In this document: one piece after another, positions 1,298 through 62,995 of the stretch
Layout of the letters: each line of letters starts with the position of its first letter
Numbering within the stretch: position 1 is the first letter of the stretch
DNA from: Octopus vulgaris
Taxonomy: Eukaryota
Assembly (NCBI GenBank): GCA_951406725.2
Contig: OX597832.1
Coordinates: 60,202,001 to 60,266,000 of the forward strand
DNA length: 64,000 nucleotides
Direction of reading: 5' to 3'
Position numbers and translations under genes: made by a program
The notes under the pieces: generated by a model
Told to the model about the DNA's origin: nothing
What the model saw: only the letters and a program-made list of their open reading frames with translations
Databases searched by the model: none

Positions 1298-2823
1298 TGT
1301 TTCTTTATTAGCCACACAGGGCTGCACACAGATAGAACAAATTACAAGGTAGAGCTTTTCTTTTGGGGGTAAAAAAAAGGGGGGGGCGATCAAAAGGTAT
1401 CGTAAAAGGAAATTGATCAATAGGGATCGTTATCACAGAAATGTCAATATGAAGTGTAAAGGGGAGGACAGGTGAGGTTTACCCGTGGAAAGAAAAGCCT
1501 ACGGAAAAGACCACGGTAACCTCGGTCAATAAAGTCACATGTTATATTTCTTTTTTTTTTTTTTTTTTGCAAATAAGCAACTCTCTGTATTAATTTTTAC
1601 GGTTCATAGAATCATAGTCAAGGTGGCTTCGTCATTCATACGTGCCATTCTTGCTACATTCACCCATCTTTTTTTAAAACATTCACTAGACAAAACCTGC
1701 CTCTCTACTCTCACTTTCCTCTTCAAGTGATACTTGAAGAAGTTGATGAGAGATTGACCAGAGAGGAAAGTGTTTGTCTCTAATCCTTTCAGGCGCGTCC
1801 ACCAGATACATTCTTTCGCCATAGCCACAAGTATGATAAAAATAGCTCTTCCTTCCCGTTTGAAGGAAGGAGGCGTGACGATATTAACGATAGACTCGGC
1901 TGATAAACCGACACGTCCCACACGTGACAGCAGTCGTTCGAGACAAGCCCACAGGTCGGAGATTGTTGGACACTGCACGATTGCGTGCAGAACGGTTTCG
2001 TCGCTCTGCCCGCATCTCGGGCAGGTCGGCCCCGTGTTTCTCGAGCCATGCCTATAGAGCTTATCCCGAACGGGTAGCGCTTCTCGGTAGCACCGCCAGG
2101 CCAGGGATCTCTGGAAGTTGTCCATAGGTCCCGGCCCGAAAGTCGTCTCAGACAGGCGGGTCAGGTATTCCTCGTCGACGCCCAGGTTTGCCCCAAGTTC
2201 GTCGTCGTACCTCCCCTCCACTAATCCCCTATAGAATGCTTTGGTCGCGTTGAAGTCACTCAAGGTCGACCCAGGACGGCAGAGTTGCTTGAGAACAACG
2301 CGACACTCGCGGTGCCATTCGCCCTTCCTCGGCCTCTTTTTGATCCACGACTGCAGTTCGGTCAGGGAGACGAGCTGCGGGAACGCGTGCCTCACAAACG
2401 GCAACCACACCTGTTCACCGTCGTCTACATAGAGCCGGAGATGTCGCAGTCTTAGCGTGTGTCTGCGCATCATCAACCATAGCATACCCAGCCCTCCTTT
2501 TAACGGGTGTTGACAGCAAATGGATCGCCTGACCATCGGGACGCATCCTTTCCACAAGAAGCGGAAGAGAATGCGTTCTAGTTTGGTGATGGAAGGGTCA
2601 GGACAAGGTACGACGGTCAGGCGGTAGTAGATGATGGACGCGATGTACGTGTTCGCCACCTCCGCCCGACCTTTTAGGGACAGTTTCCTCTCGGCCCATT
2701 GCTGGGTGAGAGTGACCACCCTACTCGTTATCTCGTTCCAGTTCTTCTCCATTTGGAGGTCCGGACCTAACCAGACCCCGAGCAACTCAACCGGGCCGTC
2801 CGTCCAGCGTCCCACGACTGAGG

Positions 2824-2824
<1 letters not shown>
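1298..2824 (-). mobile_element. 5'-truncated Tx1-like (L1 clade) non-LTR retrotransposon inserted in (TATC)n
   Basis: ORF2 C-terminal part plus ~300-bp 3'UTR ending ...GTGGCTAATAAAGAAACA|TATCTATC; flanked on both sides by (GATA)n; homologous 3' ends at 58608 and 59238. Confidence 0.88.
1604..2824 (-). CDS. Tx1-like ORF2 C-terminal fragment (RT thumb region + zf-RVT CCHC), stop-free for ~405 codons
   Basis: Motifs LLGVWLG, W[16 protein letters not shown], [29 protein letters not shown]-x(7)-VLHAIVQC typical of L1/Tx1 ORF2. Confidence 0.85.
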
Positions 2825-2906
<82 letters not shown>

Positions 2907-10559: not shown

Positions 10560-10683
10560 AGAAAAATACAGACTAGGACAAGAACGTAAAACATTTAGAA
10601 GACGATACAAAAAACACGGACGGGACATTCGAAGCCTTCAATCTTCAGTCAAGAACCGGATCATCCTAGCAATATCGGCTGAT
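10560..10683 (-). mobile_element. Terminal fragment of the ~0.6-kb (TA)n-inserted family (cf. 33400-34130, 45010-45640)
   Basis: Shared GGACAAGAACGYAAAACA...CATTCGAAGCC...TCTTCAGTCAAGAACCGGATCA. Confidence 0.7.
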
Positions 10684-13000: not shown

Positions 13001-13029
13001 GGACAGTATTTATATTGAAAAATATGTAA

Positions 13030-13560
13030 GCACTACAAAATTAAGACATGACAGAGTTGGCCAATATCTACACTGGCTAATAAGTCGGCATTACAATATC
13101 AAAACTGCCGACAAGTGGTATAATCACCACCCTGAAGCTGTAACTGAAGGAGAAAATGTAACGATTCTGTGGGACTTTCCAGTACATACAGACCGAACCA
13201 TCAAAGCCAATAAACTGGATATTGTTGTGAAAGACAAAAACAATAAAGTGTGCTTATTGATCGACATGAGCATCCCCTGTGATCATAATATCTCGGCGAA
13301 AGAGTTTGACAAGCTCAGAAAATATAAAGACCTGCTCATTGAAATTGAGAAAATGTGGCATCTCAAGGCGGTTACAATATCAGTGATCGTAGGAGCACTA
13401 GGAATGATCAAGAAGGGAACCGAAAACTATATGAGAATGATCCCTGGCTTACCATCCCTGCAAGAAGTGTAAAAGATTGACTTAACTGGTCCATCACACG
13501 TATTGAGAAGAGCATTATCGATGTGAGAACTATTACTACCCATGTGTTTTAATTTAACTT
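13030..13560 (+). pseudogene. R4/Dong-like non-LTR retrotransposon C-terminal restriction-like endonuclease fragment
   Basis: RHDRVGQYLHW...ILWDFPVHTDRTIKANKLDIVVKD...LLIDMSIP...KLRKYKDL...VIVGALG; premature stop at 13470. Confidence 0.85.
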
Positions 13561-16186: not shown

Positions 16187-16397
16187 CATGATTGATCGCT
16201 AGCCACTAAACCGTGTTTTATTTTATGTTTGTTTCTGTTGAATTATTTCTGTTTATTTCTGTGTTTATTTCTGTTGAAGAGCGTAGGCTCGAAACGTGAA
16301 AGACTTTCTCACTTCCCGAGCGTCAAACTAATACATCTTTTGTTGTTTACACACCCGTTTTCGTCTTTTGTTCCGTTTGTTTTTTTTTGTAAATTCC

Positions 16398-20957: not shown

Positions 20958-21224
20958 TAGGGACTTAGGAGTAAAGATTGTTTGCCAACATAACACGGGC
21001 AGTCCTGGTTTAGGACGAATGTTTGCTGTAAGTTAGTCCCAGGAGACATCGTCTCCAGCTGGCTAAACGACACGATCTGTGTCCTTGTTCGAAAATATAA
21101 GGACACAGATCGTGTAGTATAGCCAGGTAGAGACGATGTCTCCTGGAGCTAAATTACAGCAACATTCCTCCTAAACCTGGACTGCCATTTTATATTGACA
21201 AACAATCTTTACTCCAAAGTACTG
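20958..21224. mobile_element. Fold-back MITE, probably Tc1/mariner-derived, TA target duplication
   Basis: ~125-bp inverted arms (GGAGTAAAGATTGTTTG/CAAACAATCTTTACTCC; ACACGATCTGTGTCCTT/AAGGACACAGATCGTGT); TA at 20956-57 and 21225-26. Confidence 0.8.
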
Positions 21225-27824: not shown

Positions 27825-28275
27825 AGTCTATTGACTAAATTTTTTGCGCTAAGCCACTGGTAATAAAAAAATTTCTATAATTCTTATTACCCTAATATTA
27901 TTTCTTATGTTTAAATGATTTTTGATAAATTTGTTCGAGGTTTTACCGGCATCCTCTCTGTTGCCGAAAATAGACTGCGACTGTGCAGTGGATTTGAAAA
28001 GTTAGAATATACAAACAATGAGTTTGCATGCGGAATCGATTCGTTGTATGTATATTTAAAATCTAAGGCTACCCACTGATGAAGACGGCCTCAGTAAATC
28101 TGTTTTTACTGAAATAAGTCAGAAACCATGGTCTGGGAATTAAATTAGATGGTAAATGTTTTTACTTTTCATTCCCTTCGAGAATTTATCCCTAATTAGT
28201 GGCTTGAATTTATAACTGTTCTTTCTAGCGCAAGGTTTTCCTATGATGGAAGCCTCTTAATAAGTTTTAATGTAC
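27825..28275 (+). mobile_element. PLE-like/retrozyme-like element in (TA)n carrying hammerhead ribozyme
   Basis: Unique ~450 bp between (TA)n tracts; HHR at 28061-28150. Confidence 0.65.
28061..28150 (+). ncRNA. Type I hammerhead ribozyme (predicted cleavage after GUC, C28133)
   Basis: Stem I CCCA(28072-75)/TGGG(28134-37) plus ATCTAA/TTAGAT; CTGATGA 28076-82; stem II GAC/GTC with inner TCAGTAAA/TTTACTGA; GAAA 28122-25; palindromic stem III ACCATGGT. Confidence 0.8.
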
Positions 28276-33399: not shown

Positions 33400-34130
33400 A
33401 AAAATACAAAATGGGACAAGAACGCAAAACACTCAAAGAGACGACACAAAAAACGGACGGGTCATTCGAAGCCTCTAATCTTCAGTCAAGAACCGGATCA
33501 ACCTCGCAATTTCGGCTGATTAATCTTGAGATAGCTCCGATCCGACCAGCCCCAAGGAAAAAATTAGCTACGAGCCTTAGATTTCTTGGAAAAAGGATAG
33601 AATGTATACGAAACAAGAACAGAAAAACGACGATGCCACATGAATATAAATACAAAAAACAATAATAGTAATAACAGGACAAAAACAGCGGGTGTCTTAC
33701 GACTTTAGACAGTTCAACTTAGCTTAACTGGCGTATTTGGAAAATATGCCTTTACGGCAGACGAAGAAAACGATGTTGTCCTGGCGGTGGTCAGAAGCCG
33801 AAAGGCTAGCTGACCAGCGGTCACGTGAGAGGAGAAGAGAGAGAAAAAAGGGGGCAAGGGAATCAAAGAGAGAGAGAAAAAGAGGGACAAAGTCACCAAA
33901 GAGGGGGGGGGAGAAGCGAGAGAGAGAGAAAAAATTAAAGAGGGGAGAAAAAAGAGAGCGTGCCAAGGATTGGCTTGGCGACAGAATCAGTGAGGTGCAA
34001 AGTGAGAAAGACAGAGAAATGTAAGAGAGTGGGGGAAGAGGAGACCAAAGAATCAGAGGCGAGAAAAGAGAAAGAGAGAGACTAGTGAAGTATAGAGAAA
34101 GTGTGTGTAGAAGTCGTACAATAGTGGAAT
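33400..34130 (-). mobile_element. ~0.6-0.7-kb non-coding element at (TA)n, homologous to 45010-45640
   Basis: Shared TTTTTCCTTGGGGCTGG...CAGCCGAAATTGC...GACTGARGA...CTTCGAATGACCC...GTTTTGCGTTCTTGTCCCATTTTGT. Confidence 0.7.
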
Positions 34131-34162
34131 GCTTACATACATAAGAGAAAAAGGAGGTACAT

Positions 34163-34495
34163 AAATGAGGTTTAAAATTTACTACAGCTGTTTCGAGAGG
34201 TTTTTATTGATGGTTTCACAGATTACACTAGTGCATAAATCCAGTATCGTCACGAAAATTTTAAACCGGTATAAAGAGACTCGATAAAAAATAACCTGAT
34301 GATCATCTATCCAACAATCGCCATGATGAGTAAACGTTGTTTGTAGGATATGTCATCATCAAGGTTTATCCTTGCTGGTTTATAACCTGTCCAAAAAATT
34401 TACCTGACGATGGTGGATTTATGCTATGATGTAATCTATAAAGGCGTCAATAAAATTTTACCGAAACAGATGTAGTAAATGTTGAACCCCATTTT
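34163..34495. mobile_element. Imperfect ~330-bp palindromic element with hammerhead motifs in both arms (opposite strands)
   Basis: Left arm 34163-~34316 is the reverse complement of right arm ~34340-34495. Confidence 0.75.
34399..34479 (+). ncRNA. Type I hammerhead ribozyme (predicted cleavage after GUA, A34474)
   Basis: TTTAC-CTGACGA(34404-10)-T-GGT...ACC-GAAA(34463-66)-CAGATG-TA-GTAAA; mirror arm shows palindromic stem III ACAGCTGT. Confidence 0.65.
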
Positions 34496-34544
34496 TGTTC
34501 TTCTTCGTGTATGTATATATATATGTATATATGTGTATATATAT

Positions 34545-34722
34545 AGTGAGAATTTACAAAAAAAAAAAACGAAGGCGGATGTGTGAACAACAAACAGGTG
34601 TATTAGTTTAACGCTCGAGAAGTGAGAAAGTCTTTTACGTTTTGAGCCTACGCTCTTCGACAGAAATAAACAGGGAGAGAAAATAGAAAAAGGTTTAGTG
34701 GCTAGCGATCTTTCATGGCGAA
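34545..34722 (-). mobile_element. CUGUNGA-variant minimal hammerhead element
   Basis: RC TTT-CTGTCGA-A-GAGC-GTAG-GCTC-AAAACGTA-AAAG; homologous to 16187-16400. Confidence 0.7.
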
Positions 34723-35136
34723 TGTATATATGTGTGTGTGTATGTGTGTGTTTGTGTGTGTGTGCGTGTATATATGTATGTGTGTATGTATATATGTATG
34801 TGGTGTATACACTATGTTATTGATGCTGGAAAAAACTTTACAAAGTGCTACTCAGAGTTTCGCGTAACCGTTCGTCAGTCAGTTACGAGAATTCAGAGAA
34901 ATATTATAATTTGATAAGTATTTATAAGTATTTATATATGTTCGTGTAATATATCTTTTATCTTTTATTGTTTCAGTCGTTTGACTGCGGCCATGCTGTG
35001 ACACCACCTTGCAGAATTCCAGTCCGACGTATCGAGTCCAATATTTATTCTTTTGTTAAAGCCTGATAACTATTCTACACTCGTGGTACTGCATCAGGGC
35101 ATTATTGTTGTTGTTGTTGTTGTTGTTGTTGCTATT

Positions 35137-39384: not shown

Positions 39385-39776
39385 TCTTTTACTCTTTTGC
39401 TCTTTTACTCTTTTACTTGTTTCAGTCATTTGACTGCGGCCATGCTGGAGCACCGCCTTTAATCGAGACTTATTCTTTTGTTAGCCAAGTACTTATTCTA
39501 TCGGTCTCTTTTGCCGAACCGCTAAGTAACGGGAACATAAACACACCAGCATCGGTTGTCAAGCAATGCTAGGGGGACAAACACAGACACACAAACACAC
39601 ACATATATATATACATATATACGACAGGCTTCTTTCAGTTTCCGTCTACCAAATCCACTCACAAGGCATTGGTCGGCCCGGGGCTATAGCAGAAGACACT
39701 TGCCCAAGATGCCACGCAGCGGGACTGAACCCGGAACCATGTGGTTGGTTAGCAAGCTACTTACCACACAGCCACA
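39385..39776 (-). mobile_element. SINE family B, near full length with (AGTAAAAG)n tail
   Basis: All family segments present in reverse complement. Confidence 0.88.
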
Positions 39777-40102
39777 CTTCTTTATTTCTTTAAATAATCT
39801 TCCGTTGGTGTGTTTACGTCCCCGTAACTTAGCGGTTCGGCAAAAGAGCCCGATACAATAAGTACTAGGCTTTCAACGAATAAGTCCTGGGGTCGATTTG
39901 CTCGACTAAAGGCGGTGCTCCCGCATGGCCGTACATACCACGACACATTTTTTATCTTGTTTTTCTATTGCTGTTTGTTTTTTTTCGTGTTTTTCTATGT
40001 CAAAGCCATATATATATGTTTATGTATATTGTGTGCGTGTGTGGGAGAGAGAGAAAGAGACAGAGAGAGAGAGAGAGAGAGAGATGTGCATGTGAAATAT
40101 AT

Positions 40103-40938
<836 letters not shown>

Positions 40939-44812: not shown

Positions 44813-45010
44813 TAATCCAAACAAGAAAGCACAAAAAAAACACAACAACGCGAGGACGTGGAACAAATATAATATTACTGGACGCTCAGGAAGGAAGGGA
44901 AGAAGGAAGGTTTAACGTTTCGAGCGGGGGTCTTCGTCGGAAACATTGGAGAAGGAAAGATCCAGAGAAGGGAAGACAGAAAATCGCCAACGGTACACAC
45001 GCGGTCACAT
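44811..45010 (-). mobile_element. PLE-like short element in (TA)n with minimal hammerhead motif (CCGACGA variant)
   Basis: RC 44944-44910: GTTT-CCGACGA-A-GACCCCCGCTC-GAAAC-GTT-AAAC. Confidence 0.65.
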
Positions 45011-45640
45011 CCCCTCTCTCACATTTCTTTGCCTTCTGTTCTTGCTCACTTTCCCTCCACTTTTCACTTCACTGTGTCCTTATTATTTTTTCTCGCCTCT
45101 CCTTAATTCTTCTGTCCCTCTGCTTCTATCCCTCTCTCTCTCTCTTCTCTTCCAGCGTGACCGGCGTTCAGCCAAGCCTGATCTTTCTGTCTTGCTCTGA
45201 CTGTTGTCCGTGCAACATCGATATTCCTCCCTGTGCCTGTGAAATCTCGTATCCCTGCCGTAAGGCTTCATTTCCACACACGCCAGCTTAATTTAATTCG
45301 TCCTAAGTCGAAAGACGCCTGTTGTTTATGTCCTGTTATTACTTTTATTGTATTTGTGTAACATTGTCCGTTTTTTCCCGTTCGTGTTTTTGTATACATT
45401 CGCTGCTTTCTTCTAAGGAATCTAATGCTCTTAGCTTAGTTTTTCCTTGGGGCTGGCCAGATTGGAGCAATCTCCAGTATAACCAGCCGAAATTGCAAAG
45501 ATAATCGGGTACTCGACTGAGGAAATAAAACTTCGAATGACCCTTCCTTGTTTTCTTTGTATCGTCTATCTGGATGTTTTGTTGTCTCATTTTTGTATCA
45601 CATAACTGACCGGATGTTTTGCGTTCTTGTCCCATTTTGT
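45010..45640 (+). mobile_element. ~0.6-kb non-coding element, homologous to 33400-34130
   Basis: See 33400 entry; ends at (TA)n. Confidence 0.7.
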
Positions 45641-45642
45641 AT

Positions 45643-45710
<68 letters not shown>

Positions 45711-45713
<3 letters not shown>

Positions 45714-45917
45714 AGAGTTTACGAAAAAAGCAACAAAAGACGAAGACAGGTGGTGTACAAAACAAACAGATGTGTTAGTATAACGCTCAGGAATAGAAAA
45801 AGTCTTTTACGTTTCGAGCCTATGCTCTTCTACAGAAAGCGACACAGAAAACAAGGAGAGAAACTAGGAGAGAAACGAGGAGAGAAAAAAATGTGTGGCT
45901 AACGATCTATCATGGCA
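45711..45917 (-). mobile_element. CUGUNGA-variant minimal hammerhead element
   Basis: RC CTTT-CTGTAGA-A-GAGC-ATAG-GCTC-GAAAC-GTA-AAAG (45839-45802). Confidence 0.72.
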
Positions 45918-45929
45918 TTCAAATAAACG

Positions 45930-46070
45930 AATGATAAAATAGGACGTGCACAAAGAATGTATTGGCTTGACGCTCGGTTTTAAGAGAAAGTTTGACGTTT
46001 CGAGCACAGCTCTTGGTCGGAAATGAGAAAGAAGGAACAGAAATCGCCAACAGCACGTGTGTAGTTACGT
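45930..46070 (-). mobile_element. PLE-like short element with degenerate minimal hammerhead
   Basis: RC TTT-CCGACCA-A-GAGC-TGT-GCTC-GAAAC-GTC-AAA. Confidence 0.55.
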
Positions 46071-47067: not shown

Positions 47068-47247
47068 AGATCGTTAGCTACTACATACATTTTTTCCTCT
47101 CCTTGTCTTTTCTATGTCCCTTTTTGTAGAAGAGCGCAGGCTCGAAACGTGAAATACTTTTTCTATTCCTGAGCGTTATACTAATACATCTGTTTGTTTT
47201 GTATACCACCTGTCTTCGTCTTTTGTTTTTTTTCGTAAACTCTCCCT
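47068..47247 (+). mobile_element. CUGUNGA-variant minimal hammerhead element
   Basis: TTGTAGA-A-GAGC-GCAG-GCTC-GAAAC-GTG; close homologue of 45711-45917. Confidence 0.7.
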
Positions 47248-60344: not shown

Positions 60345-61150
60345 TTGCTACAATGTGAATATTTGATATTTAGTGAACATGCCCTTTGCATTTTTCAATG
60401 TAAGGGCCCTATTAGGCATGTTACTGATCAGATGATGAATATTCTCTTGCGGAATTTCTTGCCAAGTTTCATGCATCTCAAAAGATCTGGTTTTGAAGAT
60501 GCTTTCTTGTTCTTTTTATGTTCCAGAGGTGTTCAATGAGGTTCATATTTGGTGACTAGCTTGGCCATGGAAGCTTTTTAATGCCATCCTCATCCAACAA
60601 ATCTTGAGTCATTTAACCCGTTTGACAAGGTGCCCAATCTTCCATAAATAAAGAGTCCTCTTTAATCCATTTCACCACTGGAGAAGATTGGAGGGAGTCC
60701 ATTCTGCAATATGGACACATATTTATCTGAGTTTATGTTTCCTTCACACTCCACCAGCTCTGACCAACCATTGCTCCAAATTGCTCCCCAGACCATCACA
60801 GAAAAGCTGCCGTGTTTCGTTGTTGGCTGCAATCTTTTCACATCAAATTTTTGATCACTGAGTCTCCAGACCCACACGCGGCCGCTGTCAGAAAATACTG
60901 CAAATCTGGACTCATCAGAGAATATGACAGTGTCCCAAAATGCTAGTGGCCTCTCCACCATCTCACTGGCCCAATCTTTCCTGCCTGGTCGAAGAAGTGG
61001 TTTCCTTCTTGCTGCTCAGTGTCCCAAAATGCTAGTGGCCTCTCCACCATCTCACTAGCCCAATCTTTTCTGCCTGGTCGAAGAAGTGGTTTCCTTCTTG
61101 CTGCTCTGCCATAGTAACCGAGTTTGTGGAGATACTGGCTCATTGTATTC
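60345..61150 (-). pseudogene. Tc1-family DDE transposase pseudogene
   Basis: [47 protein letters not shown], and degenerate WPS*SPNMNLIEHLW; stops, frameshifts and an 89-bp internal duplication. Confidence 0.88.
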
Positions 61151-61761
61151 AAACAGTGCAACATAGAAGGAACTGGAATGTCTTGTCATAGGAAGGACAG
61201 TGCCTAATGATGATCATCTATAGGTTAACTCCCATGGAAAAGACGTCAAAGATAGTCTCCATATATGACCATCTCAATTTTGGGAGATAACTCTGACTGC
61301 ATAATATATCTACTCTGTCCCTCCTTATTTCAGAAGGATGGATATGATTTCAGGGAAATTCGGCTGCTAATTATAGAATATCAAAAGACCACATAAAGAT
61401 TATTTCGCAAAAGAGAGTAAACAAATGTAAGTTTAATTAACGGATTGACGCCAGAGTTCTTGTTGTTGTTGCTGCTGATGTTGTTGCTGCTGCTCCTGTT
61501 GTTGATGTTGTTGTTGTTGTTGTTGTTGTAGTCGTCGTCGCCGTCTAAGTTGCTTCAGTCGGGCATTTTTCAAAGTGTTTACATTCTGGATTCAAAACTA
61601 ATGGTGCACATTTTCTTGGATGTAACCCTCTCTTCTGAGGCTCAAGGAGGTTCCTGTGTCTGCCTACGACTTCTTGGGTACCTAAAAAGATACTAAAGAA
61701 AAAACATATTACATAGTGACATCAGGCCATATGAAATTGAGAAATATTATACATACATAGT

Positions 61762-62804: not shown

Positions 62805-62995
62805 ATAGTTCAAATTTATGGAAAAACAGAAGACGAAGACAGGTGTATAGACAACAAGCAAATGTATTGGTTTGACGCTCACAAATAATGGAAAAGTCTT
62901 TTATGTTTCGAGTCTACGCTCTTTGACAGAAAAGAATAAGAGGAAATAGAGAGAGAATGAAAAAAGACGTGTAGGGTTCAGCGGTCCATCATGAC
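62805..62995 (-). mobile_element. CUGUNGA-family element, degenerate
   Basis: RC CTTTT-CTGTCAA-A-GAGCGTAGACTC-GAAAC-ATA-AAAG. Confidence 0.65.

Follow-up and report, generated by a model that had tools for sequence, protein, structure and literature searches.

Does a short palindrome that folds into a rod and carries hammerhead-like motifs on both strands represent a viroid-like RNA, a ribozyme-bearing element that spreads as a unit, or the remains of an ordinary transposon? This question is raised by a locus in a window of 64,000 nucleotides from Octopus vulgaris (contig OX597832.1, positions 60,202,001 to 60,266,000), the whole stretch of DNA that was analysed and to which all coordinates below refer. 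The initial annotation had described an inverted repeat with hammerheads of both polarities and a viroid-like rod architecture, and had offered an inverted terminus of a Penelope-like element (PLE) as its most parsimonious option. Caution is warranted here, since a pair of inverted Penelope ends mimics the signature of a rod with ribozymes of both polarities that is used to call viroid-like RNAs.

The palindrome and its arms

The locus is an imperfect palindrome of ~340 bp, which bears out the ~330-bp inverted repeat described initially. A gapped alignment of the arms, 34159–34319 against 34335–34498, is complementary at 118 of 156 columns (76% identity), and an inverted-repeat search places the arms at 34129–34262 and 34395–34528 (72% identity, ungapped). 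Self-BLAST of the window recovers the palindrome as a match over 34159–34498 (69.5% identity, E = 3.6e-31) and finds no second copy of the whole element within the window. The predicted fold of the + strand RNA has an energy of -130.8 kcal/mol (z = -11.5), a value equalled by none of 100 shuffles, and that of the - strand RNA has an energy of -125.7 kcal/mol. The palindrome is real genomic DNA rather than an assembly artefact, because a single 335-nt contig spans 34104–34438 in X2 and likewise in X4, public sequencing runs from two studies, with seven differences from the window in each. The features of the locus and its immediate flanks are as follows.

33404–34158, no strand assigned: unrelated dispersed repeat sequence adjoining the left arm, with two matched stretches, from one element or two, and a GA-rich tract between them; copies of 33400–33760 lie at 45255–45643 and 10562–10683
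34159–34319, - strand: left arm, from the same hammerhead-bearing repeat family as the right arm, with its 3' end to the left (arm alignment; family contigs begin at 34159, and their loose ends are heterogeneous, agreeing at 0.52–0.53)
34177–34259, - strand: decayed minimal hammerhead with core GTGACGA (motif anatomy)
34296–34302, + strand: CTGATGA, antisense family sequence and not a ribozyme core, with an imperfect mirror, TCATCAA, at 34356–34362
34320–34334, no strand assigned: unpaired centre of ~15 nt where the arms meet head to head (arm homology ends near 34319 and 34335; paralog depth starts only in the bin 34325–34339)
34335–34506, + strand: right arm, a copy of the hammerhead-bearing repeat family with its 3' end to the right (arm alignment; many contigs at 80–95% likeness over 34394–34505)
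34398–34480, + strand: minimal type I hammerhead (descriptor match and motif anatomy), predicted to cut after 34474
34481–34506, + strand: stretch of ~26 nt, still family sequence, that follows stem I and ends the arm (contigs extend to 34492–34505)
34510–34545, no strand assigned: microsatellite of (TA)n type bordering the palindrome on the right, a likely target site
34545–34720, - strand: a further dispersed repeat, also unrelated, whose motif resembles a minimal hammerhead (core CTGTCGA at 34663); five copies in the window

Differences between the arms were compared with the letters that prevail in the wider family. Sites were chosen where the summed depth, which is not a copy count, favours in X2 as well as in X4 a letter other than the one found here; a borderline site (34391) and a flanking site (34150) were excluded, and 34408 was handled separately. 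Of the 11 sites tested, seven have retained the family letter in the other arm, one has the same change in both arms, and three show a third state or a gap in the other arm. At 34408, position N7 of the hammerhead, both arms carry C, against A or G in ~90% of the family depth; this shared C suggests that the two arms derive from one template, and it also fits later gene conversion. The 52 mismatches between the arms show no strand preference at this one locus, with 12 able to form a G-U pair on the + strand, 10 on the - strand, and 30 pairing on neither (p = 0.83). With 12 against 10, the idea of a one-strand excess of G-U pairs, as A-to-I editing or selection would have left, is rejected. Together, the changes at separate sites and the unbiased mismatches indicate separate neutral decay of the two arms rather than a maintained rod.

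Hammerhead motifs

The + strand hammerhead proposed for the right arm is confirmed as a motif at 34398–34480. Its core, CTGACGA (34404–34410), is followed by an extra T at 34411, between positions 9 and 10.1. Stem I consists of 6 bp (ATTTAC/GTAAAT), and stem II (34412–34417/34457–34462) of another 6 bp, two of them G-U pairs, closed by G10.1-C11.1 (G34412-C34462) and extended by a long insert of ~39 nt within helix II. The GAAAC box, a 4-nt loop (AGAT) and a GTA cleavage site conforming to NUH are all present. Loop 3 differs between the arms: the right arm has AGAT, and the left arm, like the majority of the family depth, has the palindromic AGCT. The family letter C at 34470, within the loop, is carried by 26 contigs in X2 and 36 in X4. 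As the right-arm loop is not palindromic, cleavage as a dimer would likely be weakened in this copy.

A strict hammerhead descriptor, composed after the motif had been seen, matches the right-arm motif alone in the window and has no match in 100 shuffled windows. The Rfam hammerhead families gave no match at gathering score over the window, nor at E values up to 10 over 33800–34900. An open reading frame starting at an ATG within the hammerhead was considered and discarded, as it meets a stop after 21 codons.

The mirror motif of the left arm lies on the - strand where the initial annotation had placed it, and its C3 mutation is present, but the damage extends well beyond C3. The motif carries C3>G and G10.1>A, its stem I is largely lost and its stem II lacks the opening pairs, with GAAAC, the AGCT loop and GTA left intact; the X2 and X4 alleles are additionally altered at 34248, which corresponds to G8 of the core. 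A PLE hammerhead with C3G no longer cleaves (PMC11167929), and the left-arm motif is matched by none of the relaxed hammerhead scans. The inner CTGATGA at 34296 and its mirrored TCATCA at 34356–34361 are likewise positioned as first reported, but their status as a third or antisense hammerhead does not hold, as the sequence lacks a GAAA box, a G10.1-C11.1 stem and any match in the relaxed scans. With a broken left motif and an inner sequence that is no ribozyme, the description of the locus as bearing hammerheads of both polarities is not sustained. Judged from sequence and predicted structure, the palindrome plausibly holds one ribozyme rather than a working pair.

Even this ribozyme may be masked in its present context. 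Even with one arm folded alone, the computed hammerhead fold is less stable than the minimum-energy fold by ~5 kcal/mol, and forcing it in the full palindrome costs 61.6 kcal/mol. Whichever side a read-through RNA came from, its antisense arm would be made first and the ribozyme would be buried, and this order of synthesis together with the 61.6 kcal/mol cost suggests that the rod would silence it.

Family copies and the probable origin of the inverted pair

Contigs from four of 24 listed sequencing runs were aligned to 34085–34505 with a likeness cut-off of 80%, yielding 197 contigs in X2, 278 in X4, 147 in X12 and 26 in X8, counts that include the left-flank repeat. The arm sequence is repeated in many dispersed copies, with the family letter at 34440 found in 44 contigs of X2, 52 of X4 and 31 of X12. 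The 26 contigs of X8, which we guess to be an RNA run, are mostly left-flank repeat and family paralogs. The inner segment 34235–34324 is covered at 80% likeness by the locus's own contig only, as read from X2 and X4 (blanks in X8 and X12 carry no evidential weight).

Most of the informative copies appear to be single-armed. Among the loose-end classes listed, three in each run, 37 contigs in X2 (22 + 7 + 8) and 47 in X4 (27 + 10 + 10) look single-armed: medians of 218–255 unaligned letters lie upstream of their right arm, room in which a mirrored arm above the cut-off would have fitted. Joints between aligned segments point to both kinds of copy. Among the 15 joints listed of 19, nine switch strand between the arms, mostly near mirror positions, as expected of a single arm; the other six stay on one strand as they pass from the left arm to the right, a course that is possible only with two arms. 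Contigs in which a mirrored arm is joined to a direct arm number at least four in X2, at least five in X4 and at least one in X12, and these are lower bounds, given that contigs break in repeats, that the cut-off is 80% and that four joints and 292 loose-end rows fall outside the listing. The sole readable middle of another two-armed copy measures 36 nt, compared with 209 at this locus; in five of the six two-armed rows the middle is unreadable, and in four of the six two-armed joint rows the short side has fewer than 30 letters. Single-armed contigs outnumber two-armed ones by ~9:1 among the matches listed, and two-armed contigs make up roughly one tenth or more of the informative contigs. 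Two-armed loci recur, yet no second copy of this centre is seen. The finding named at the outset as one that would refute a spreading element, a palindrome unique to this locus with single-armed copies elsewhere, is largely borne out: it holds for the centre and for most informative copies but not for the two-armed arrangement, which occurs at least four to five times per deep run.

Two sets of contigs stand apart. One record of X4 (record 23, 34395–34505) matches the right arm with only six differences and has 129 upstream letters that do not align to the centre, and may be a close paralog or a structural allele. Four contigs of X12 (records 1–4, 311–374 nt) all begin aligning at 34346–34349, which may mark a family boundary or a region where the present copy is too diverged.

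The palindrome consists of two back-to-back, separately mutated copies of one dispersed hammerhead repeat, most likely the pseudo-LTR (pLTR) ends of a Penelope-like element that remained from a single ancient insertion. The locus probably represents ordinary transposon debris rather than a viroid-like element. The inverted PLE terminus favoured on grounds of parsimony at the outset is supported by a single multi-copy family, outward 3' ends and mostly single-armed copies. Since the motifs point outward, the arms meet head to head, and assignment to PLEs follows from the motif type, the geometry and the copy pattern taken together.

The arms resemble published minimal hammerheads of PLEs in several respects. 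According to PMC4209133, minimal type I hammerheads of metazoan PLEs share the extra base between positions 9 and 10.1, the G10.1-C11.1 closing pair and the long helix II; they also share the two-pair helix III with a palindromic loop seen in the present family, the predominance of solo copies, and the occurrence of dual motifs on opposite strands, which in Schistosoma lie ~100–700 bp apart. The ~39-nt insert in helix II and the right-arm loop 3 that is no longer palindromic set the present copy apart from those motifs. In the anole PLE the ORF starts at stem II (PMC11167929), unlike the frame found here, which stops after 21 codons. The geometry is that of Penelope pLTRs arranged head to head, a form described for endonuclease-bearing elements in PMC8557442 and in PMC3846280, which reports it as the most frequent one, with inverted pLTRs of 181–218 bp. 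As in those sources, the arms here, ~165–170 nt long, meet at their 5' ends with a very short centre between them, their 3' ends face outward and one end abuts a microsatellite. Unlike them, the present locus has no following ORF, no second direct pLTR and no target-site duplication (TSD) that was found, and its arms are ~24% diverged. The arrangement is already published, and this locus is one more decayed example of it.

Such a pair could arise in a single event. The RT/endonuclease of the element would place a short piece of the terminus into an AT-rich target, and the inverted second copy would be made in the same event, either by fold-back self-priming or by extension of both cut strands. 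Self-priming on an antisense template has been proposed for head-to-head pLTRs (PMC3846280), and a PLE protein cuts and extends both strands at AT-rich DNA (PMC11167929), suggesting to us that the two cDNAs made in this way could join as a head-to-head pair. Later neutral decay of the arms would complete the picture, and the rod and the two polarities would simply follow from the inverted duplication. Counting against this account, 34120–34165 and 34495–34545 share no direct repeat of at least 5 nt; PLE copies both with and without a TSD are described in PMC3846280. Also against it, no Pfam family of a PLE RT or GIY-YIG domain was found among 129 selected frames of the window. The cited papers call the step by which Penelope makes inverted ends unresolved, and the present family provides a small test set of several two-armed loci whose junctions could separate self-priming from two-strand extension.

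Among other explanations, the arms could belong to a non-autonomous fold-back unit, either a two-armed pLTR derivative or a MITE that captured a hammerhead, copied whole and once a perfect palindrome that has since decayed at each locus. The recurrence of mirrored and direct arms in the same geometry in all three of X2, X4 and X12, the shared alignment start of the four X12 contigs and the presence of another palindromic element in the window (20963–21220) are what such a unit might leave. We nevertheless regard it as unlikely, in view of the missing paralog over 34235–34324 at 80% likeness in X2 or X4, the 36-nt length of the sole readable other middle, the excess of single-armed copies among the rows listed and the lack of a TSD; the same unparalogous centre and single-armed majority leave the claim of a ribozyme-bearing element spreading as a unit unsupported. 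A variant of slightly lower probability would confine this behaviour to a sub-lineage of the family, a MITE-like two-armed Penelope derivative of ~340 nt with outward hammerheads, copied whole through self-priming by a PLE enzyme. If so, the other two-armed contigs (at least four to five per run) would be siblings, and their centres would bear on the antisense self-priming model. Beyond the cited PLE papers, no palindromic hammerhead-bearing unit was found described in the literature searched, which left out most subscription journals.

Two further readings invoke circular RNA. The arm could be the monomer of a non-LTR retrozyme, a tandem PLE derivative that forms circular RNA, with the palindrome arising as a chance inverted pair or by later local inverted duplication. 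The arm length of ~165–170 nt, the type I hammerhead and the palindromic loop fit this account, animal retrozymes are likewise short non-coding type I hammerhead units present in many copies, and solo monomers are common in such families (PMC7229834 and bioRxiv 10.64898/2026.07.22.740005, the latter for solo monomers). Retrozymes as described there form direct tandems that give rise to circular RNA, whereas the units here are inverted: the locus holds no direct tandem and none of the 15 joints listed of 19 is of tandem type. At 34159, the 3' end of the family, the contigs continue into varied, AT-rich loose ends, and the extra base between 9 and 10.1 and the long helix II are traits of PLE motifs, so that a retrozyme origin appears very unlikely. 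Least probable is an origin as the DNA copy of a viroid-like circular RNA, in which hammerheads of both polarities would work and selection would maintain the rod. Avsunviroidae and the retroviroid-like CarSV RNA, which has a DNA form, are likewise small, self-complementary and equipped with hammerhead motifs on both strands (PMC12382478), and the strong rod and hammerhead-like motifs on both strands recall them. Those agents, however, are circular RNAs with functional ribozymes of both polarities, whereas the left motif here has several core and stem lesions, with a further one at G8 in the X2 and X4 alleles, and the two motifs mirror each other as copies of one dispersed repeat that is mostly found singly. 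Each polarity also has a single motif, with no direct repeat from which a unit could be released, and more than half of the arm mismatches pair on neither strand. A viroid-like rod is accordingly not supported, given the broken left hammerhead and the lack of a bias that would preserve pairing. A pattern scan of viral contigs gave no matches. Pattern matches in metagenome contigs, at 16 loci, cover only an 18–21-nt motif without the upstream core and were taken as chance.

Flanking sequence and other repeats in the window

The two flanks of the palindrome belong to other repeats. On the left, 34085–34159 combines high contig depth with a continuation that differs from that of the arm family. 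The repeat found at 33404–33760 and 45255–45643 ends at (TA)n, and at 45.6–45.7 kb it faces the repeat type of the right flank across a single TA tract. That right-flank type (34545–34720, - strand) has further copies at 16262–16372, 45710–45867, 47121–47247 and 62822–62950; core position A6 is T in five of five copies, and at least three copies end at (TA)n tracts. The (TA)n tracts look like insertion hot spots.

Several other repeats in the window also carry hammerhead-like motifs, and such motifs are common background here. A third family at 28069–28140 (+ strand) has an intact CTGATGA, a long stem II hairpin, a palindromic CATG loop and an extra base before GAAA. A minimal-hammerhead-like motif with core CCGACGA lies at 44910–44945 (- strand), and another, spotted by eye only, at ~45965–46010 (- strand).

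The remaining repeats are of other kinds. The palindromic element at 20963–21220 is 258 bp long and near-perfect (84%), with TA-like ends; it looks like a DNA-transposon MITE and contains no hammerhead in the scans. A zf-RVT match (E = 2e-08) at 1607–2830 (- strand) marks a retrotransposon remnant. The frame at 13002–13472 (+ strand), which has no Pfam match, presumably resembles the endonuclease end of a LINE. A weak match to a Tc3 transposase HTH, below the cut-off, lies at 60946–61185 (- strand) and represents a DNA-transposon remnant. Finally, at 39437–40264 a SINE-like repeat occurs three times, with copies facing opposite ways that create a 125-bp inverted repeat of 94% identity.
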